A stretch of DNA of 24,000 bases from Akkermansiaceae bacterium (GCA_023301765.1 JALZUC010000051.1:5315-29314); one strand, 5' to 3'. Positions 6,942-16,395 are shown, counted from the first letter of the stretch. Made by a program: numbers and translations. Notes: a model not told the origin generated them from the sequence alone.

Positions 6942-7071
6942 GGGGCGCGCAACCTACCGATAGACCATCGAATTGCAAGGGTATTTTTGGCTTTTCCTTT
7001 CATTAGGAACAATTAATTTAAAAAACTCATTGAATAGGGAATATCCCCACAGCTAATAGCTCTTACATATT

Positions 7072-7575
7072 ATGAAGTTAGTTATATATTCCCTATATGC
7101 TCTCGCTGTAGTTGGTTTACCCATTCTACTAGTATCTTCCAACAGTGAGCCCTCATCTTACCCTGTGGAGGCTGGCCCAGCCAAGTTCCTCCGTGATCAC
7201 GATCAAGCTATGGCTCAGGCAAAAAAAACTGGGAAACCTGTTTTTGCCTTCTTTCAGGAAATCCCCGGATGAGGCGGCTGTAAAGACTTTGGTCGTCAGG
7301 TGATGACCGATCCCACTATCATCTTAGCTGTAGAGAACTCCTTCACACCGCTTCTTATCATCAATAATAAAGCAGGTGCTGATGCCAAGATCCTCAGAAA
7401 ATACAAAGAACCTGCATGGAACTACCAAGTCATCCGCTTTTTAGATAGTAATGGTAAGGACGTCATACCGCGTAAGGGGCAAGTCTATACTAAAAAGGAA
7501 CTCGCTAGCCGTATGGTCAAAGCTTTGGAAAAAGCACAGCGCCCCGTCCCTGAGGCTCTAAAAAAGCTACAGTAA
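7072..7575 (+). CDS. exported thioredoxin-fold oxidoreductase, predicted selenoprotein (UGA 7270-7272 read as Sec; redox motif U-G-G-C)
   Basis: ORFs 7072-7272 and 7300-7575 share one frame and are separated only by TGA 7270-7272. Read-through gives 167 codons: a signal peptide or anchor, then KTGKPVFAFFQEIPG-U-GGCKDFGRQVMTDP...EPAWNYQVIRFLD. The UGA occupies the first Cys position of CxxC, and a hairpin lies 18 nt downstream. Confidence 0.7.
7291..7308 (+). promoter_or_regulatory. candidate bacterial SECIS hairpin
   Basis: GGUCGUC-AGGU-GAUGACC forms a 7-bp stem (one G.U pair) with a 4-nt G-containing apical loop. The loop starts 25 nt after the UGA, within the spacing usually described for bacterial SECIS elements. 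Confidence 0.55.
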
Positions 7576-7634
7576 CTGCATATTTCACCTATATTGTGAC
7601 TTGTTAATTAGGGCTGCTGTTTTACAACGCCTGC

Positions 7635-9014
7635 ATGCGAACACTGATTAAGCGAGCTCTAGCGAGCGACACTGCTAAAGACACTATCACCATCAGCGGC
7701 TGGGTGCGGACACGCCGTGACTCTAAAGAGTTTTCTTTTCTGGAAATGAATGACGGCTCATGTCTGGCCAACATTCAGTGTATAGCGGATGCTGGCATCC
7801 CCGGTTACGAAGATGCACCAAAGATGAGCACTGGCGCATCTGTAACCATCGAGGGCAAACTTGTAGAATCCCCTGGCAAAGGCCAAAAATGGGAAATCCA
7901 CGCCACCTCCATCAAACTTATAGGAGAAGCACCTGCGGACTACCCACTGCAGAAAAAAGGCCACACCCCTGAATTCCTCCGCTCCATCGCCCATCTACGC
8001 CCACGAGCTAATCTCTACGGCGCAGTATTCCGCATGAGAAGCCGCATGTCACAAGCAGTGCACCGCTTTTTCTCAGAGCGTGATTTTACCAACGTTCACA
8101 CCCCTATCATCACTGACTCAGACTGCGAGGGCGCTGGTGAAATGTTCCGCGTCAGCACGCTAGATCCGGCTAAGGCAGAGGCGCAGCAGTTCGAGAATGA
8201 TTTCTTTGGTAAACCCACCTACCTAACCGTGAGTGGACAGTTAGAAGGTGAGGCATTTGCCACCGCCCTCTCTAACATCTACACCTTTGGCCCTACATTC
8301 CGTGCAGAAAACTCAAACACCACGCGGCACGCATCTGAATTCTGGATGATCGAGCCAGAGATGGCCTTCTGTGACCTTGAAGGTGATATGGATCTTGCCG
8401 AGGAATTCACCAAATATCTCGTCGATGACGCACTGCAGAACAATGAAGGCGACCTCGATATTTTTGCCCGCTTTGTAGATAAAGGACTACTTGAGCGACT
8501 CAAATTTGTCTCAGAAAAACCCTTCCAGCGCGTCTCCTACACAGAGGCTGTGGAGATCCTTGAGAAGAGTGGCAAGAAGTTCGACTACAAAGTGGAGTGG
8601 GGCGTAAACCTCCAGTCCGAGCACGAGCGCTACCTCACCGAGGAGCACTTTAACAGCCCAGTCACCGTCTACAACTATCCCAAAAGTGTAAAACCCTTCT
8701 ACATGCGCACCAATGAACCTGACAGCGAAGGCCGTGAGACCGTCACCGCCATGGACGTGCTCGTCCCAGGCATCGGCGAAATAATCGGGGGTGCTCAGCG
8801 TGAAGAACGGATCGATGTGCTTATGGCGAACATGGCCGCACACAACCTATCAGAAGACGACTACGGCTGGTATCTAGACCTCCGGAAATACGGCACCTGC
8901 CCGCACGCCGGCTTTGGTATGGGCTTCGAGCGCATGCTCATGTTTGTCACCGGCATGAAAAACATCCGCGACGTCATCCCCTTCGCCAGAACTCCCGGTT
9001 CTTGCGAGTTTTGA
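7635..9014 (+). CDS. asnS: asparagine--tRNA ligase AsnS
   Basis: 459-aa ORF with an N-terminal OB fold and a class IIb core ([55 protein letters not shown]). Confidence 0.95.
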
Positions 9015-9047
9015 GTTTTTAATGACAAGTGTTTAATTGCTTTTGCT

Positions 9048-9419
9048 ATGGAACCACCAGACATTAGAAAATGATCATTCCAGTTCTCTATCAGGGTAAT
9101 AGTCCTATGTAAGGTGCTTGATCAGAGCCCTGGATTATCAAGAACATTGGCCAACCAGTTACTCAGATCAGGAACATTCGTTGGAGCTAATGTCGCTAAA
9201 ACTCAGGCGGCACTGAGCAAAAAAGACTTCATTGCTAAAATGTCAATTGCCAGTAAAGAGTATCACTACACATCTTACTGGCTAGAACTCTTAATCGCCT
9301 CTAATATACTCCCCGAAGCTTAGCTTGCACCTCTCACAGATGAATCAAACGAAATCATCACTATCCTAATATCAATTGTAAAAACATCTCAACTCAACAC
9401 TCAAAACTTCACCCCATGA
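9048..9419 (+). pseudogene. four-helix-bundle protein (23S rRNA intervening-sequence protein family), disrupted by two in-frame stops
   Basis: One frame runs from ATG 9048 to TGA 9417-9419, 124 codons, which is the normal family length. It is interrupted by TGA 9072-9074 and TAG 9321-9323. Family blocks span both stops (SFQFSIRVIVLCKVL, NQLLRSGTFVGANV, LSKKDFIAKMSIASKE, YWLELL, ESNEIITILISIVKT). The terminal TGA overlaps the fabV ATG (ATGA). Confidence 0.65.
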
Positions 9420-10606
9420 TTGTAAAACCTAAAATCCGCGGCTTCATCTGTATCACCTCTCACCCAGACGGCTGTGCCGCTAATGTGCAGGAGCAGATTG
9501 ATTATGTAAAATCTCAACCTAAGGTCGAAGATGGCCCTAAGAACGTGCTCGTGATCGGTTCATCGGCTGGCTATGGCCTCGCCTCACGCATCGTTCCGGC
9601 ATTTTCATCCGGAGCTAATACTCTCGGCCTTTTCTTTGAGAAGCCAGGCACTGAGAAACGCACTGGCTCTGCTGGCTGGTATAATACCGCCGCCTTTGAA
9701 AAAGCGGCTGCTGCTGAAGGTCTATTTGCTAAGTCACTCAATGGTGATGCCTTTTCACACGACCTTAAAAAACAGGCAATCGACATTATCCAAAATGAAA
9801 TGGGGAAAATCGATCTCGTAGTCTACTCCCTCGCCTCCCCTCGCCGTACAGATCCTGATAGCGGTGAAGCATACTCTTCTGTGCTCAAAACCACCGGCGG
9901 AGATTACACAAACAAAACTCTTAATACCGATAAAGGTGAGGTCTCTGAAGTCACCATCGGTGCTGCCACTGACGAGGAAATTGAGAATACTATCAAAGTC
10001 ATGGGCGGTGAAGACTGGGAGCTGTGGATAAACGCTCTAGCAGATGCCGACGTACTTGCTGAAGGTGTAAAAACAGTAGCTTACTCCTACATCGGGCCTG
10101 AGCTTACATGGCCTATTTATACTGATGGCACCATTGGCCAGGCAAAGAAAGATCTAGAGAAATCATGCACTCAGCTTAATGAAAAACTCTCCTCACTAGA
10201 CGGCACCGCATTTGTTTCAGTAAATAAAGCACTCGTTACACAGGCCTCCTCTGCCATCCCAGTAGTGCCACTTTACATCTCCATTCTCTACAAAGAGATG
10301 AAGGCTAAGGGGCTGCATGAAGGCTGTATTGAGCAAATCCAACGCCTCTTCGCAGACCGTCTCTACTCTGATGACCCTCAGTTAGACGAGGCTGGCCGCA
10401 TCCGCATAGACGATTGGGAAATGCGCGATGAGATCCAAGCCGCTGTCGCTGAGTCATGGAAGAAAATCTCTAACGAGAACTTCACAGACCTCGCAGACTT
10501 CCAAGGCTATCAAGATGAATTCCTTCGCCTCTTCGGCTTTGGCATCGATGGCGTAGACTACAGCGCTGAGACTGATCCTGAGACGGCACCAGCCTCACTC
10601 TCCTAG
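9416..10606 (+). CDS. fabV: enoyl-[acyl-carrier-protein] reductase FabV (trans-2-enoyl-CoA reductase family)
   Basis: 396-aa ORF. The N-terminus MIVKPKIRGFICITSHPDGC..NV..QI.YV and the blocks VLVIGSSAGYGLASRI, DLVVYSLASPRR and YSYIGPE.T...Y..GTIG.AK.DLE are characteristic of FabV. Confidence 0.9.
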   Translation: MIVKPKIRGFICITSHPDGCAANVQEQIDYVKSQPKVEDGPKNVLVIGSSAGYGLASRIVPAFSSGANTLGLFFEKPGTEKRTGSAGWYNTAAFEKAAAAEGLFAKSLNGDAFSHDLKKQAIDIIQNEMGKIDLVVYSLASPRRTDPDSGEAYSSVLKTTGGDYTNKTLNTDKGEVSEVTIGAATDEEIENTIKVMGGEDWELWINALADADVLAEGVKTVAYSYIGPELTWPIYTDGTIGQAKKDLEKSCTQLNEKLSSLDGTAFVSVNKALVTQASSAIPVVPLYISILYKEMKAKGLHEGCIEQIQRLFADRLYSDDPQLDEAGRIRIDDWEMRDEIQAAVAESWKKISNENFTDLADFQGYQDEFLRLFGFGIDGVDYSAETDPETAPASLS

Positions 10607-10627
10607 ATAAAGGAACTATCTTTCAAA

Positions 10628-10664
10628 GGGGGGCATTTCACTACGAAATGCCTCCTTTTTTTTT
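10628..10664 (+). terminator. rho-independent terminator downstream of fabV
   Basis: GGGGGCAUUUC-ACUAC-GAAAUGCCUCC forms an 11-bp stem with one G.U pair, followed by nine U residues. It starts about 20 nt after the fabV stop. Confidence 0.85.
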
Positions 10665-10759
10665 ACCCTCACGCCTATACGGATACTATTTCCACCCGTG
10701 TAAAATGATCTCTTTAAGCAAAAGAGTTTACCCCTGCATACATCCATAGAAATTCAGGA

Positions 10760-12547
10760 TTACTCACTCAGACCAAGAAATCGTTTTTGATAACGTCTGG
10801 GAATATCCTTAATACTTACACTCAGTAGGCAGTATATCGCGTTATTAAATGACGGCTCTACATGGAAGGATAAGAACTTAGCACCTAGTGATACATAATA
10901 TCTAATTAAAGGGGGAATTGACTGACCATTACCTTCGAGTTCCTCGATATAGCTATTAAGTCGGTTTAAGCCATCCTCTCTCCAAGCATCTGAAACTAAG
11001 GGGTGATACTTCGTGCTAGACTGAAATGGCACGCGAGCTTGCACCAGCTTCCTTACTTCATGATCATCACCGTAGAATCTATCCAGCGTATCAACTAAGA
11101 TTCCTTGGCTAAGCGCACTAAAGCTTGCTGATATAGTTACAGAGCCAAACAAGGTCTCACAGTCCATCTTACGAGCCGCTAGCCCAAGCCCCTTCCAGAG
11201 CAGGTCTAACATCTGTGGGTTTTTCTGAAACTCTGGTAAGATAAATGATCTACTCAGCTCCATCGCGGCGCCTATGTGGTTATAAAATTTAGAGTCGATA
11301 TCAAAAACGTTGTTAAGATATAAACCATCCACTCCATGCTTAGCAATGACATCTTGGGTGTAGCCAATCCGGTATGCACCGATGAGTGAACACTCCTCTT
11401 GATTCCAGAGCACCAGGTGGTGGTAGTATTGATCTTCAGGAGAGAGATCTATTTCCTTACCTGTACCTGCACCAATAGCCGCAAAGGTAACGGCTCTACC
11501 GCGCCCTACCTGATTCAGTAATAATGGAGCCTGATCACCACGTACTAGGAGGAGTATAAGTCTATCGTTAGACCAGAGTTTATCATCCTCAGGCAGCTTA
11601 TTAATTTCTTCTGTAAGCTCATTGACTGGCCCCCGCTCCATGGCTGGTAATTTATCTGTTAGGCTTGGGGCCAAAGCCGCGGCTGTGCCACCACTCTCTC
11701 TTTCAGATGCCGCATAGCAGCGGGCATGTAACTGCGTAACCTTTCCACCTTTTCTGGTTAATCTCACTACCTCATCAGGTGCAAGAGTTCCGCCGTAGCT
11801 CATCCTTACCGTTTCACCTTTTTGCTTAGGTATTTCACGCGCCAGCATCATAGCTCGGCGCGTAGGATTTTCAGTAGGTAAGGCTAGAAAATCTTCACTA
11901 TTCTGACCACTAATGTGAGCCACTACTACATGCGCACCGGATGCCTTGGCTAACTTCAGGGCATGGTCAGTCCATGGGAGGTCACATACCGCACCGACTT
12001 TATCCGATTTAGCTGAGACACGGCCAGCCGGAAACAGGCCTAACATCCCTCCTGATTTAAGAAATCTAATCGACTCCTTCATCACAGAAACATTACTAGC
12101 ATCTTTACTAAAAGGATTAACGGCAAAGCTCGATCCCTTAAGAGCATCGATAGAACGGAGTAGCTTATTCGCCATAAGCTTCCATGCTCCTTCATCAGGT
12201 CTGGCCTCATGCATACAGCGCATCAGTGCCATAGCATCTATACAGCCGTATGGATGGTTTGCAGCCACGACTACAGGCCCATCTATAGCACTTAACGCCT
12301 CTGATAGTGCAGGATCAATGATCACCTCAGACTCCATAAATTCTAGGCAGCCTTCAAAAAATCCGGCAGCACCTAGAGTCTGGTCACGCTCCATAATCTT
12401 GACTGATTCATCATGAACTTCAGTAATTTTATGAAACATCAAGCAGCGCTCTACTAATGGCTGTACGCTACGGTACATGCCTCGTATAAAGGGCGATTTA
12501 ATCATCTCGGCCGTATTAATCCCCTGCCATGACTTATTCTGACTCAT
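10760..12547 (-). CDS. bifunctional acyltransferase of OlsF-like architecture: N-terminal PlsC/OlsA-like O-acyltransferase plus C-terminal OlsB-like GNAT N-acyltransferase (putative aminolipid synthase)
   Basis: 595-aa ORF. The N-terminal half has VVVAANHPYGCIDAMAL (His/Asp catalytic block) and GLFPAGRVS (FPEG-like block). The C-terminal half has YYHHLVLWNQEECSLIGAYRIG and SRSFILPEFQ, typical of the hemolysin-like/OlsB N-acyltransferase family. Confidence 0.72.
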   Translation of the reverse strand: MSQNKSWQGINTAEMIKSPFIRGMYRSVQPLVERCLMFHKITEVHDESVKIMERDQTLGAAGFFEGCLEFMESEVIIDPALSEALSAIDGPVVVAANHPYGCIDAMALMRCMHEARPDEGAWKLMANKLLRSIDALKGSSFAVNPFSKDASNVSVMKESIRFLKSGGMLGLFPAGRVSAKSDKVGAVCDLPWTDHALKLAKASGAHVVVAHISGQNSEDFLALPTENPTRRAMMLAREIPKQKGETVRMSYGGTLAPDEVVRLTRKGGKVTQLHARCYAASERESGGTAAALAPSLTDKLPAMERGPVNELTEEINKLPEDDKLWSNDRLILLLVRGDQAPLLLNQVGRGRAVTFAAIGAGTGKEIDLSPEDQYYHHLVLWNQEECSLIGAYRIGYTQDVIAKHGVDGLYLNNVFDIDSKFYNHIGAAMELSRSFILPEFQKNPQMLDLLWKGLGLAARKMDCETLFGSVTISASFSALSQGILVDTLDRFYGDDHEVRKLVQARVPFQSSTKYHPLVSDAWREDGLNRLNSYIEELEGNGQSIPPLIRYYVSLGAKFLSFHVEPSFNNAIYCLLSVSIKDIPRRYQKRFLGLSE

Positions 12548-12552
12548 CGTTA

Positions 12553-13296
12553 CTAACTATTTAAACTTAATTTCGCGCCATGCTCCATGCTAAAGCCTGA
12601 TTCGCCGCCTCCCTCACCCTGCCGAGTCCCGTAGCGGATGCTGGCTACACCAGAGCTATTATCTACGCGGATATGTGAAAGGCTCACTGTTTGAGTAAGC
12701 TCACGTGACATACACACAGATGACTCAGCATCACCTTCGATCTGATGCCTGTGATAGTCCTCCAGCGGATATCCACCTTCCGCTACCAGTTTCTGAAACA
12801 TGTCTTTGCGACCATCTTCTACCCTCTCAGACTCCCAAGACGAGCTCGTCACGGGGCACTGCACATCTTTAATCTCTGTGAGTTCTACACCATTCCAACA
12901 CCAGCAAACGGCTTCGCCCGAAGCGAATATAACTAGCCGAAATGGTGCGTAATCGGACTTTGCTACTATCGATCTCACCAGCTGACTCGCAGACTGAAGT
13001 TCTGAGATTTCACCCAAAGCATCCGTCACTAATAGACCTCTACTCCGATAGATACCACCGGATTCATAATCAAATGGTATGCGGTAATCATTTAGTAAAC
13101 AAACTACCACACCGTGCGTATTTACCCCTATCCAGGTACCACCACCCGCAGGATCACGAGGAAATAGACACTCTACTCCGTGGACTTCGCGGAGTTCAGG
13201 AGGCTCTGCCTTTACCCGCTTCCGTTGTTCATCTCTACTGAAGTAGATCTCATAGACACGCTGATCCTCTGAGACTTCCCATGACAAGGTACACAT
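12553..13296 (-). CDS. TANGO2/NRDE-family protein
   Basis: 247-aa ORF starting with MCTLSW (the conserved Met-Cys N-terminus). It also has FSRDEQRKR (an NRDE-motif variant), RDPAGGGTWIGVNTHGVVVCLLN, RSRGLLV and YAPFRLVIF. Its stop is 5 nt from the downstream acyltransferase start. Confidence 0.78.
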   Translation of the reverse strand: MCTLSWEVSEDQRVYEIYFSRDEQRKRVKAEPPELREVHGVECLFPRDPAGGGTWIGVNTHGVVVCLLNDYRIPFDYESGGIYRSRGLLVTDALGEISELQSASQLVRSIVAKSDYAPFRLVIFASGEAVCWCWNGVELTEIKDVQCPVTSSSWESERVEDGRKDMFQKLVAEGGYPLEDYHRHQIEGDAESSVCMSRELTQTVSLSHIRVDNSSGVASIRYGTRQGEGGGESGFSMEHGAKLSLNS

Positions 13297-13312
13297 TGGC
13301 TATTAAAAATAG

Positions 13313-13813
13313 TTATTTCTTCTGATAGGCGACGGTAGCTGGAGCCACACCAAAGGCATTCTCCATCTTTAAGCCTCTGAGCTGACACATTACCTTAATT
13401 AAGGCAAAGTGATGCACCCCATGAATGGAGGCAAACATCGCCTCTCTCCCCACAGATGAACTTACCTTAGGAGACTCCGTCTCATCGTAGCAGACCTTAG
13501 ATACTACATCTACAGTATCTACCATCTGACCACTATCGAGTGCGTCCCACTGAGCCAGTAGACTATTCGTCTTTTCCTTAGCTGTCTGCAAACATGTTTC
13601 CACCGCTACATCGCGGCACCGTGCATCATAGTTTACACACCCACTCTGCATCCCATCGATCAATATTTCTACATGATCCAGAATGTGGCGGTAGTGCGCA
13701 CCTATCGACGAAGTAAAATGTGGTGTATTCACATATACGTAATCATCAGAGCTTAACTCCCCTAATAATAACAGCCCTTGCTCGAGCATCTGGTTCACTG
13801 ATCTCTCTACCAT
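13313..13813 (-). CDS. DinB-superfamily (four-helix, His-rich metal-binding) protein
   Basis: 166-aa ORF with spaced His motifs (GAHYRHILDHVE ... SIHGVHHFALIK), as in DinB_2-type proteins. It ends 16 nt upstream of the NRDE gene. The family assignment comes from motif recognition only. Confidence 0.55.
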   Translation of the reverse strand: MVERSVNQMLEQGLLLLGELSSDDYVYVNTPHFTSSIGAHYRHILDHVEILIDGMQSGCVNYDARCRDVAVETCLQTAKEKTNSLLAQWDALDSGQMVDTVDVVSKVCYDETESPKVSSSVGREAMFASIHGVHHFALIKVMCQLRGLKMENAFGVAPATVAYQKK

Positions 13814-13931
13814 GTGTATTCTTTAGCAAATAAGAGCCAACTACCAAGGTTCAATTCCCTACTATTTCCATTTATTTCATCTCAGCAAAAAAAGGACTAC
13901 CGCCTAGTGGTCTCACCTTGTAAGATCAGGC

Positions 13932-14666
13932 ATGCCTACCAAGGAAAGAGCTGATGCCTTACTCGTCTCACGAGAGCTATGTGACTCCCGTGAGCAAGCC
14001 AAACGCTTGATCCTAGCTGGAGAGGTTATGTGTGGCACTAATGTAGTGGCTAAACCCAGCACAAAAATCCCCTCAGATGCAGAAATCACCGTGAAGGAGC
14101 GCCCTAAGTTCGTGGGCCGTGGCGGGCTGAAGATGGAGGGAGCCCTAGATGCATTCCAGTTTGACCCCTCGGGTATGACTTGCCTCGATGTTGGCGCATC
14201 TACTGGAGGTTTTACTGATTGTCTACTCCAGCGGGGAGCCTTGAAGGTACATGCCGTGGACGTAGGTACTAATCAGCTAGTCTGGAAACTACGTAGTGAT
14301 CCACGAGTGGTAGTAAAGGAGAAGTTTAACGCCCGCCACATGACCCCTGAGGATATTGGTGAGCCCATAGACCTCGCCGTCACGGACGTTTCCTTTATTT
14401 CCCTGACAAAAATTCTCCCCCCCATGTTCGCCACCTTAAAAGATAGCGGACAGATTATCTGCCTTATTAAACCTCAGTTCGAACTTGAGCGTGAGGATAT
14501 TAGTAAAGGGGGCATCGTCAGAGACCCTGAGCTACATCAGCGCGCTGTGGATAAAATTCACCGCTTTGTTACAGAGGAACTAGGACACACATGGATAAAG
14601 TGTATCGACTCCCCCATCACAGGCACAGACGGTAATCGGGAGTTTCTTGCGTGGCTCCGCCCCTAA
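13932..14666 (+). CDS. tlyA: TlyA-family rRNA (cytidine-2'-O)-methyltransferase
   Basis: 244-aa ORF with an N-terminal S4-like segment (RADALLVSREL..SREQAKRLILAGEV) and an FtsJ-like SAM fold (CLDVGASTGGFTDCLLQRGA..V.AVDVG..QL, DVSFISL, KPQFE, GNREFL). Confidence 0.9.
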   Translation: MPTKERADALLVSRELCDSREQAKRLILAGEVMCGTNVVAKPSTKIPSDAEITVKERPKFVGRGGLKMEGALDAFQFDPSGMTCLDVGASTGGFTDCLLQRGALKVHAVDVGTNQLVWKLRSDPRVVVKEKFNARHMTPEDIGEPIDLAVTDVSFISLTKILPPMFATLKDSGQIICLIKPQFELEREDISKGGIVRDPELHQRAVDKIHRFVTEELGHTWIKCIDSPITGTDGNREFLAWLRP

Positions 14667-15518
14667 CTAGTTAGCCACAGGATCTAGCCCTAGGGCTTTT
14701 CTTTTTACCGCATCCGCTGGACGGCTCTGATTCCAGTATGGCACGTTCATTTGGCGTTTTTTAAGCGTTGCTGTAGTGGTGCCAGTGCCTGTTTCCTCCG
14801 TCCACTTTCTAATGACGTGGGGGAATGCGGTGTCGAAGTGGATGGTCAGATTACGCTTATAAGTATGGTAAGCTAGCGTGTAGGTAGACTTCTCCCCTAA
14901 CTTCTTCAGGCTAGCTGTGGCTGTGGGCAGAGTGCTTTGCTGTGTGTAGTTCATCCGTGTAGCGACGGCTCCAGGCAGAATTTTAATTTTACCGGTAGGA
15001 AGTTTATTAGGATCTAGACGCAGCGTCACCCACAGTCCATCCTCCGAGTGCGCGGATGGTAAAGTGAGGTTCTGATCACCTGGGTTTTCAAAGTAGGAGC
15101 GCAGTTCTAATTTCCAGTGATTATTTCGATAATTTATCTGCTGAAAGACCTGTCCACACCAGTCTTGCATCGTACTCACAGACTTCAATGCGTAGGGGAA
15201 TCTCTCCACATCCACCGGCCTAAAGGTAGAGGTCATCAGACGGTATGAATAGATACCTGTGTTAAATGTGCTCAGGCTATTTAACTTTAATACCGTAGCG
15301 GAGTTTACCTTCCCTCTCTCGTTTTTCACCTGCTTATCTAGCAAAAACGGCTCAGTGACATAGATGAGCTCTGCGTGTCCGGGGTGGATCTCACCATACT
15401 TTGACTGCTCTAGCTTGAAGGAGCTTATTTCCGCACCATTATACCAGTATTTTTTCACCTGATCACTTTGAGCGTAACTAAGGGTTGGGATAGCTAGTAA
15501 TGGCAATAGCAATTTCAT
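14667..15518 (-). CDS. exported protein of unknown function (cleavable signal peptide)
   Basis: 283-aa ORF with N-terminus MKLLLPLLAIPTLSYAQ. I recognise no enzymatic motif. Its stop codon abuts the tlyA stop with no spacer. Confidence 0.6.
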   Translation of the reverse strand: MKLLLPLLAIPTLSYAQSDQVKKYWYNGAEISSFKLEQSKYGEIHPGHAELIYVTEPFLLDKQVKNERGKVNSATVLKLNSLSTFNTGIYSYRLMTSTFRPVDVERFPYALKSVSTMQDWCGQVFQQINYRNNHWKLELRSYFENPGDQNLTLPSAHSEDGLWVTLRLDPNKLPTGKIKILPGAVATRMNYTQQSTLPTATASLKKLGEKSTYTLAYHTYKRNLTIHFDTAFPHVIRKWTEETGTGTTTATLKKRQMNVPYWNQSRPADAVKRKALGLDPVAN

Positions 15519-15603: not shown

Positions 15604-16395
15604 ATGAAACCCCTCACCCTATTTGCGCTGGCTGGCCTCGGATTTCTAGCCGCCAGCTGCACTAAAAAAGAATCCGTAGAAGAAACCAACAACGCCGGAC
15701 ATGACCTCATCATGGACTCCATCACGGCACACGGCGGTGCAGACACATGGCACGGTAATGGCCAGCTACAGTTCCGCTGGACTTATCACATGACTGATAA
15801 AGGCGCTATTGTGGATACCACTCAGACCGTAGACACAGCGAGCCTCGCCGTAGTTCATCAAGTAGAAGGTAAGGACATCCGCTTTGGCTCGAATGCAGGG
15901 GAAACATGGGTCACTCCAGAGGGTAGTAAGGTCATACCTCCAGCTAAGTTCTGGTCACTCACCCCCTACTACTTCATCGGCATCCCATTTGTTTTTAATG
16001 ATCCTAATGCAAAGTTTGAGAAGCTCGGTGAAATGAAGTCCTTCGAGGGCAAAGAATACCAACAGGTAAAAATCACCTACAATCAAGACGCTGGTGATAC
16101 GCCAGAAGATTACTACGTGCTCTTAATTGACCCTGAAACTAAACTGACAAAAGGCGCTTACTACATCGTCACCAGTAAACTAGTGGCTCCAAATGGCCCT
16201 ACCCCACCTAAGTTTATCACCTTGGATAACCTCAAGGAGGTCAATGGAGTGAAGATAGCATCCGGACACCGCACATTCAAAATGACGGATGGTGTCATAG
16301 GTGATCAAATGCGCTACACTGACGTATCCGGTGTAAAGTTCCTACCACGCGGCACTGTGGACCTATCTATCCCTGAGGGGGTAAAGACCCACTAA
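15604..16395 (+). CDS. lipoprotein of unknown function
   Basis: 263-aa ORF with N-terminus MKPLTLFALAGLGFLAASC, giving a lipobox L-A-A-S-C. It is divergent from the exported protein gene across an 85-nt spacer. Confidence 0.6.
   Translation: MKPLTLFALAGLGFLAASCTKKESVEETNNAGHDLIMDSITAHGGADTWHGNGQLQFRWTYHMTDKGAIVDTTQTVDTASLAVVHQVEGKDIRFGSNAGETWVTPEGSKVIPPAKFWSLTPYYFIGIPFVFNDPNAKFEKLGEMKSFEGKEYQQVKITYNQDAGDTPEDYYVLLIDPETKLTKGAYYIVTSKLVAPNGPTPPKFITLDNLKEVNGVKIASGHRTFKMTDGVIGDQMRYTDVSGVKFLPRGTVDLSIPEGVKTH

Follow-up and report, generated by a model that had tools for sequence, protein, structure and literature searches.

The 24,000-nucleotide stretch of Akkermansiaceae bacterium DNA analyzed here (GCA_023301765.1 JALZUC010000051.1:5315-29314; the whole stretch is hereafter the window) carries a trio of closely packed genes for a DinB-fold protein (DinB-like), a TANGO2/NRDE-family protein (TANGO2), and an OlsF-like bifunctional aminolipid synthase. 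The trio is probably one inherited unit and the minimal form of a widespread, undescribed aminolipid module, with the roles proposed below. It can be described as an OlsF aminolipid pathway with two undescribed accessory enzymes, and we are quite confident that the unit serves the synthesis, tailoring, or turnover of an aminolipid.

An earlier reading of the window, made from the DNA alone (the sequence-only reading), had suggested a survey of gene neighborhoods. The survey was performed, and NRDE and DinB genes were found recurrently beside OlsF or OlsB/OlsA genes. The adjacency is not confined to one lineage; it was found in Verrucomicrobiota, Planctomycetota, and Gammaproteobacteria in differing gene orders, and this recurrence argues for the lipid or acyl-thioester role that had been read from the linkage.

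A scan centered on the DinB-like gene, using one genome per species, identified 570 relatives, and the best 80, nearly all from Verrucomicrobiota, were analyzed. In 64 of these best 80 loci, a same-strand TANGO2 gene lay no more than 3 kb away, and a contig end cuts 10 of the 16 loci that have no TANGO2 gene nearby. The gene for a VTT-ATP-grasp ligase sits between the DinB-like and TANGO2 genes in 55 of the best 80, and the window order (DinB-like, TANGO2, OlsF) was found in seven, all of which are Opitutales/Opitutaceae metagenome-assembled genomes (MAGs). An OlsB/OlsF gene was present inside 23 of the 80 loci, in divergent, convergent, and same-strand geometries. As the genomes in this survey have one or two OlsB/OlsF genes each, chance placement of such a gene within 10 kb is estimated for well under 2% of loci. 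Many loci came from MAGs, and some of their taxonomic labels look like binning errors (e.g., Bifidobacteriaceae).

The pairing was also evaluated in 151 Verrucomicrobiota genomes sampled without bias, each with a completeness of at least 90%. TANGO2 was present in 14 genomes and the DinB-like gene in the identical 14, with the two genes adjacent in 13. An OlsB-type GNAT gene was present in all 14 pair-bearing genomes, compared with 81 of the 137 others, as descriptive counts among related genomes. In one of the sampled genomes (G149), the DinB-like, TANGO2, VTT-ATP-grasp, and OlsB genes form an overlapping four-gene row. The DinB-like and TANGO2 genes are thus near-obligate neighbors.

Exceptions to the pairing were recorded at three loci from Puniceicoccaceae MAGs (L034, L091, and L097) and at L031 and L066. 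Some of them have a DinB-like gene without TANGO2, ATP-grasp, or OlsB within 5-10 kb, and others have DinB-like and ATP-grasp genes without TANGO2. A decayed aminolipid cluster was observed in genome G008, one of the relatives compared below (locus L017, G008:C69, approximately 6950-9700): a TAA stop interrupts the DinB-like gene, a TAG stop lies in the OlsA-like gene, and only a truncated OlsB-like gene is left. No TANGO2 match was found in G008, and the whole gene set looks as if it is being lost together.

Outside Verrucomicrobiota, the genes were found in single same-strand clusters, with gene assignments checked using purpose-built profiles. A Marinomonas-like contig carries VTT, ATP-grasp, OlsF, DinB-like, and TANGO2 genes; Aliivibrio sifiae carries VTT, ATP-grasp, DinB-like, TANGO2, YHS, and OlsF genes; and a Planctomycetes MAG carries OlsB, OlsA, DinB-like, TANGO2, and hydrolase-VTT-ATP-grasp genes. 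A Balneolia contig in the TANGO2-centered check was uninformative.

Closer to the window, 40 relatives were compared (the G-numbered genomes, of which G000 is the genome of the window). Among them, the exact trio was found only in G021, at a protein identity of 65-80%, and the trio is also present in a further, 79%-identical relative. The DinB-like gene adjoins OlsB or OlsF in G001, G005, G008 (decayed), G017, and G020, and TANGO2 adjoins a RimK-like ATP-grasp gene, often fused to VTT/DedA, in G005, G012, G017, and G020. In the tree, the DinB-like protein of the window groups apart from the DinB-like proteins of its congeners. The OlsB domains of the trio-linked OlsF proteins likewise fall into a single clade (100/100 support) that excludes the OlsF and OlsB proteins of the congeners. 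On Rubritalea-like contigs, the trio lies between trpC and an M48 peptidase gene, with gaps of approximately 3 nt or overlaps. Identities between the window and these contigs were 45-48% for the DinB-like protein, 43-46% for TANGO2, and 46-47% for OlsF; the three proteins have thus diverged in parallel.

The site occupied by the trio was examined by comparing positions 10607-13931 of the window with genomes G001-G024 and loci L128 and L137. In at least nine congeners, tlyA follows fabV at a distance of 12-154 bp. In eight species, the gap between the two genes is 0.7-2 kb, and in G015, the closest complete genome, roughly a dozen genes fill a gap of 14 kb. In G000 and G021, 3.3 kb separate fabV from tlyA and hold the trio on the opposite strand, and the 79%-identical relative has the trio plus an extra GH81 glycoside hydrolase gene at this junction. 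The fabV-tlyA junction is therefore a variable spot in the genus, and the synteny and the trees indicate that the trio is a 3.3-kb cassette gained, or kept, as a unit at this spot. The base composition of the insert gave no sign of foreign origin.

A variable cargo at this junction among congeners is what would be expected if three functionally unrelated genes had landed there by chance or by hitch-hiking. This explanation is highly implausible, as the order, tight spacing, and parallel divergence of the three genes recur in unrelated genomic contexts and the linkage recurs in other gene orders in other phyla; such recurrence speaks strongly against chance.

The ligase found in most of the other loci is missing from the trio genomes that were searched. 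No VTT-ATP-grasp homologue was found in the genome of the window (97.8% complete) or in five other trio genomes (six of six searched). Conversely, the five genomes with a ligase cassette but no nearby OlsB all have an OlsB-type gene elsewhere. The trio is the minimal, ligase-free form of a wider aminolipid-associated module that usually includes a DedA/VTT-ATP-grasp ligase, a relationship that the sequence-only reading did not notice. The window and the ligase-containing module have both protein families (DinB-like and TANGO2) in common, as well as the link to OlsF or OlsB/OlsA genes; they differ in that the window has no VTT/ATP-grasp partner and OlsF fills the third operon position. For the wider module, an ATP-dependent addition to a lipid carboxyl group is a plausible activity of the ATP-grasp ligase, which has no bearing on the window. 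Cerilipin is formed by an ATP-dependent taurine transfer to which no gene has been assigned (PMC12971839).

Variants of the wider module were observed in several genomes. In three congeners (loci L013, L015, and L016 in G017, G020, and G005), OlsA-like, 355-aa PIN-like, DinB-like, and OlsB-like genes lie in a row, and the TANGO2 gene is paired with the VTT-ATP-grasp fusion gene elsewhere in the genome (75 kb away in G020). The 355-aa weak-PIN protein and a 4HBT thioesterase, which are encoded among the OlsA, DinB-like, and OlsB genes of congeners, were considered as parts of the system and dropped. They were judged to be housekeeping genes, as the pair is highly conserved on another G000 contig without nearby Ols genes. 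In a Chthoniobacteraceae MAG (L044, 9920-12106), one open reading frame (ORF) appears to fuse the DinB-like, VTT, and ATP-grasp parts. An 870-aa form with an N-terminal alpha/beta-hydrolase domain followed by VTT-ATP-grasp was found at L134 (6720-9332), and ORFs matching it by length only were found at L111, L112, L114, L116-L118, and L120.

Within the window, ORF calling identified the trio as three minus-strand genes (Table 1) separated by 16 nt (13312-13297) and 5 nt (12552-12548); the coordinates, strand, and gaps given in the sequence-only reading were all exact. That reading had also seen no terminator between the genes, and a pattern scan of 10400-14100 agreed, finding no terminator-like site between them. 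The sole terminator-like site in the scanned region is the hairpin between olsF and fabV, which is likely to mark the 3' end of the trio transcript. No promoter-like site was found by pattern scan in either gap; the promoter and terminator scans used consensus rules, whose fit to Verrucomicrobiota is uncertain. The other trio loci are likewise tightly spaced or overlapping. From the spacing and the pattern scans, we infer that the trio is probably a single co-transcribed operon.

The 118-nt region upstream of the trio had a mean column identity of 92% among the window, G021, and the 79%-identical relative, which exceeds the protein identity of the trio genes downstream (65-92%) and suggests that the region holds conserved regulatory sequence. 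No consensus sigma-70 site or known motif was found in it, and the consensus may not suit the phylum. The Rfam and tRNA scans of the window gave no matches. A defense role for the trio was considered and dropped, as the PADLOC defense models gave no matches. Beyond tlyA, the window encodes a 283-aa protein with a signal-peptide-like start and no Pfam match (14667-15518, minus strand) and a 263-aa lipoprotein-like protein with a sub-threshold DUF6503 match (15604-16395, plus strand).

Table 1. Trio genes, associated sequence elements, and bordering genes in the window (Ntn, N-terminal nucleophile)
Feature	Position	Strand	Basis or remark
DinB-fold protein, 166 aa	13313..13813	-	First gene; fold match and family alignment
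TANGO2/NRDE-family protein, 247 aa	12553..13296	-	Second gene; PF05742, cysteine-Ntn-hydrolase fold
OlsF-like bifunctional aminolipid synthase, 595 aa	10760..12547	-	Third gene; Pfam/NCBIfam matches
tlyA-trio intergenic region, 118 nt	13814..13931	.	Presumed trio promoter region, shared with divergent tlyA
Hairpin between convergent olsF and fabV	10625..10659	.	15-pair stem, T-run on + strand
fabV, left border of insert, outside the unit	9416..10606	+	NF043048, 650 bits; synteny
tlyA-type rRNA methyltransferase, right border, outside the unit	13932..14666	+	TIGR00478, 246 bits; synteny with fabV

The OlsF-like gene is the sole OlsB/OlsF-type gene in the genome of the window. Its product matched the NCBIfam model NF052615 from end to end (model positions 29-569 of 570) with a score of 280.9 bits. 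As this is below the curated equivalog cut-off of 620 bits, the protein was named OlsF-like and no head group was assigned. The N-terminal half matched the acyltransferase models PF19576 (E 5.6e-9) and PF01553 (E 5.6e-5) at residues 89-223, and the C-terminal half matched PF13444 (E 9.4e-15), an OlsB-type GNAT domain, at residues 352-451. The O-acyltransferase blocks of the window protein read NHPYGCID and FPAGRV, and the NHPxGxx[DE] and F[PS]A[GA]RV blocks are kept across the 11 OlsF proteins aligned; the GAYR and ELSRSF blocks of the GNAT half are conserved as well. The protein thus shares both the architecture (N-terminal O-acyltransferase and C-terminal OlsB-like GNAT) and the two motif sets of OlsF from Serratia proteamaculans and of VC0489 and VCA0646 from Vibrio cholerae, although it is only 26-31% identical to the OlsF proteins of congeners and gammaproteobacteria. 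In V. cholerae, VCA0646 likewise closes a putative multi-gene operon (PMC12186959). OlsF homologues in Verrucomicrobiales and Puniceicoccales are listed without functional evidence in a 2026 review of ornithine lipids (PMC12971839).

The DinB-like protein of the window had no match of its own in Pfam or NCBIfam (no Pfam DinB model matched at E values up to 1), and six of the eight family members matched PF12867 (best E 6.5e-6). A profile search of the family against the PDB returned noise only (TRIM25 and tropomyosin), and fold comparison alone was informative for this protein. Its AlphaFold model had a predicted local distance difference test (pLDDT) score of 85 and a predicted template modeling (pTM) score of 0.83, and the first 29 PDB matches of the model were all of the DinB/YfiT type (template modeling scores up to 0.78), with 2f22, 3dka, 2qe9, and 1rxq at the top (0.5-0.78) and mycothiol and bacillithiol transferases among the matches. 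H40, R42, H43, H47, Y62, D63, R65, R67, E72, H131, H134, and H135 are invariant in all eight DinB-like sequences. H131-x3-H135 and either H43 or H47 match the canonical DinB metal triad and would form a putative metal site. The His-rich DinB fold proposed in the sequence-only reading was thus borne out by the fold matches and the invariant histidines. The protein shares the four-helix-bundle fold and the H...HxxxH metal-type triad with the DinB/YfiT superfamily (YfiT, the bacillithiol transferase BstA, mycothiol S-transferase, and the DinB domain of EgtB). It differs from that superfamily in having no significant match of its own to the Pfam/NCBIfam DinB models and in belonging to a distinct family marked by several arginines and an invariant Y-D-x-R-x-R-x4-E loop.

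The TANGO2 gene is single-copy in the genome of the window, and its product matched PF05742 with E 4.8e-14 (53.6 bits against a gathering cut-off of 22.6). The protein opens with Met-Cys, as do all 81 aligned homologues of the module, and its counterpart of the NRDE motif is S20-R21-D22-E23, of which R21, D22, and E23 are invariant. The positions that are invariant or nearly so in the 81 homologues are M1-C2, R21-D22-E23, R27, W55, N69, R86, S152, R163, R198, and S205. A profile built from these homologues matched human TANGO2 (8sv7, E 1.2e-6) and aligned the human NRDE motif, R32, N75, and R88 with the bacterial motif, R27, N69, and R86. The AlphaFold model (pLDDT 91, pTM 0.90) showed an alpha-beta-beta-alpha Ntn fold. 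Its best fold match was human TANGO2 (8sv7, E 3e-10), followed by acyl-CoA:isopenicillin N acyltransferase, and the further matches included the bacterial NRDE protein CV2077, bile-salt hydrolases, and penicillin V acylases.

In a 2026 crystal study, the cysteine-Ntn active site of human TANGO2 was described as Cys2, Asn25, Arg26, Asp27, Asn75, Asn157, and Lys166, with an anion site formed by R32, K56, and R88, and a cysteine-Ntn hydrolase acting on fatty-acid derivatives was argued for from structure only (PMC13044924). The cysteine-Ntn hydrolases that resemble human TANGO2 are isopenicillin-N acyltransferase, bile-salt hydrolase, penicillin V acylase, acid ceramidase, and NAAA. The window protein keeps the Met-Cys start, the RDE motif, and the counterparts of R32, N75, and R88, and by all hallmarks of its sequence and model it would be a cysteine-Ntn enzyme. 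The proposal that the conserved Met-Cys supplies an Ntn-type nucleophile thus gained support from the fold, the invariant residues, and the human structure (PMC13044924). In contrast to human TANGO2, the window protein is only approximately 17% identical to it and has a Ser in place of the Asn of NRDE, and the module subfamily has invariant R163 and S152 in its C-terminal half. That S152 and R163 are equivalent to human N157 and K166 is a guess from spacing. The bacterial subfamily is always paired with a DinB-like gene, whereas the eukaryotic proteins have no such partner. The trio-type (ligase-free) TANGO2 proteins start with MCT[VIL][ST]W and most ligase-linked ones with MCxVxF; the ligase-linked locus L104 is an exception and also has W at position 6. 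Position 6, which is near the nucleophile, may be a subfamily signature that tracks the substrate.

The family membership of TANGO2 also allows a heme-trafficking explanation, in which the protein would be an HtpA-like heme chaperone and its sole tie to OlsF would be co-regulation or hitch-hiking. HtpA (SO0126) of Shewanella oneidensis belongs to the same Pfam family as the window protein and was reported to raise cytochrome c content (PMC10470608). However, the HtpA gene, for which a heme rather than a lipid role was proposed, is transcribed alone and adjoins a metal transporter gene, not DinB or OlsF genes, and the annotation of the window has no heme or cytochrome-maturation genes near the trio. 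Heme binding to human TANGO2 was non-specific in the crystal study (PMC13044924), and the heme role is contested (PMC12782551). The invariant catalytic-type residues and the strict pairing with the DinB-like gene point to an enzyme instead, and we consider the heme-trafficking explanation very unlikely.

We infer each biochemical step of the following scheme from family membership, folds, and conserved residues. OlsF would N-acylate an amino acid with a 3-hydroxyacyl chain and would next O-acylate the product, giving an acyloxyacyl aminolipid of the ornithine-lipid type. Removal of the initiator Met from TANGO2 would expose Cys2 as the N-terminal nucleophile, which would attack the fatty-acyl amide of the aminolipid or of its lyso form, or an acyl-thioester donor. 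The activity of TANGO2 would be that of an amidase or N-acyl transferase, comparable to isopenicillin-N acyltransferase, bile-salt hydrolase, and acid ceramidase. The DinB-fold partner would work on the same substrate using its His-triad metal site and invariant arginines. An amidase or N-acyl transferase is favored as all of the nearest structural relatives act on an amide nitrogen that bears a bulky or fatty acyl group, which they cleave off or transfer, in some cases using acyl-CoA. Since an N-(3-hydroxyacyl) amino acid is a suitable type of substrate, action of TANGO2 on the aminolipid or its lyso form is preferred. The specific assignment of TANGO2 as an amidase or transacylase on an N-acyl amino-acid lipid is nevertheless tentative.

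The genomes that carry the trio narrow the step at which the pair could act. As they have no ligase, the DinB-like and TANGO2 proteins cannot depend on a ligase product and would act at the level of the OlsF reaction or its product. OlsF enzymes, including VCA0646, make ornithine lipid alone in E. coli (PMC12186959), and the pair therefore more probably serves in tailoring, remodeling, editing, or turnover of the lipid than as a requirement for its synthesis.

Several observations weigh against an aminolipid unit of this kind. The sufficiency of OlsF in E. coli implies that the two small proteins are dispensable for basic synthesis. In the 151-genome sample, OlsB/OlsF is directly beside the pair in only two of the 14 pair-bearing genomes, and the linkage to the synthase is thus recurrent, not universal; any significance attached to the co-occurrence in these related genomes would be overstated. 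The first NRDE position of the window TANGO2 is a Ser, where 92% of its relatives have Asn. An internal promoter within the TANGO2 gene may also separate olsF from the pair, by analogy with VCA0646, which lies in a putative four-gene operon and has a salinity-responsive promoter of its own there (PMC12186959).

The distance of the synthase from characterized OlsF enzymes raises the alternative of head-group supply, in which the DinB-like and TANGO2 proteins would produce or trim an unusual precursor (an amino acid or amine) for acylation by OlsF, so that the product is not ornithine lipid. Ergothioneine synthesis offers an analogy in the DinB-domain protein EgtB and the Ntn amidohydrolase EgtC. 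The OlsF proteins of the trios form a separate, long-branch clade, the score of 281 against 620 bits allows an altered head-group specificity, and the many invariant arginines of the DinB-like protein would suit a small anionic substrate. Nonetheless, the pair adjoins ordinary-looking OlsB/OlsA and OlsF genes in other phyla, the Vibrio enzyme VCA0646 gave ornithine lipid by itself in E. coli, and the enzymes structurally closest to TANGO2 use amides of fatty or bulky acyl groups as substrates rather than small amino-acid amides. On this evidence, head-group supply is improbable.

The remaining alternative concerns the acyl donor. TANGO2 would be a thioesterase or transacylase on acyl-CoA or acyl-acyl carrier protein (acyl-ACP), the DinB-like protein would activate the thiol, and the two would channel or edit the acyl chains used by OlsF. 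Human TANGO2 is reported to bind acyl-CoA (PMC11867700). The second-best fold match of the window protein is an acyl-CoA-dependent acyltransferase, the counterparts of the human anion-binding R32 and R88 are invariant, and several DinB-fold enzymes, including the mycothiol and bacillithiol enzymes among the fold matches, are thiol transferases. However, none of this support is specific to the TANGO2 subfamily of the module, and OlsF-type enzymes, which need no partner in E. coli, are thought to take acyl chains straight from acyl-ACP. Acyl-donor handling, which we also judge rather unlikely, overlaps the proposed action on the aminolipid and differs from it only in the bond attacked.

The sequence-only reading knew of no description of the trio as a functional unit, and the literature agreed with this: full-text searches combining TANGO2 with ATP-grasp or with DinB, and NRDE with ornithine lipid, found no papers on the partnership. 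The 2026 review of ornithine lipids names none of DinB, ATP-grasp, TANGO2, NRDE, or DedA (PMC12971839). What the window adds is the ligase-free minimal trio, its co-inheritance as a unit, and its insertion site, and the trio points to an unrecognized layer of aminolipid biology.

In humans, TANGO2 deficiency disorder is a severe disease, and what the protein does is disputed, with heme trafficking, acyl-CoA binding, and Ntn hydrolase activity all proposed. The bacterial gene context provides independent evidence on this function, as a TANGO2 homologue is tied, across phyla and through rearrangements, to enzymes that make N-acyl amino-acid lipids, the kind of substrate that an enzyme related to bile-salt hydrolase, ceramidase, and isopenicillin-N acyltransferase should have. 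The window holds the simplest version, with three genes and no ligase or flippase partner found in the genome, and is a simple system for the question of TANGO2 and lipids. A broader proposal, which we put forward as a doubtful but far-reaching one, is that TANGO2 proteins are true cysteine-Ntn enzymes whose ancestral substrates were N-acyl amino-acid membrane lipids or the acyl-thioesters that feed them, and that their bacterial partner is a DinB-fold metalloprotein. On this view, the three genes would suffice to make and remodel an undescribed aminolipid, e.g., by exchange of the head group or the N-acyl chain through a Cys-thioester. If this were true, the chemistry of the trio would reveal the long-sought substrate class of human TANGO2.

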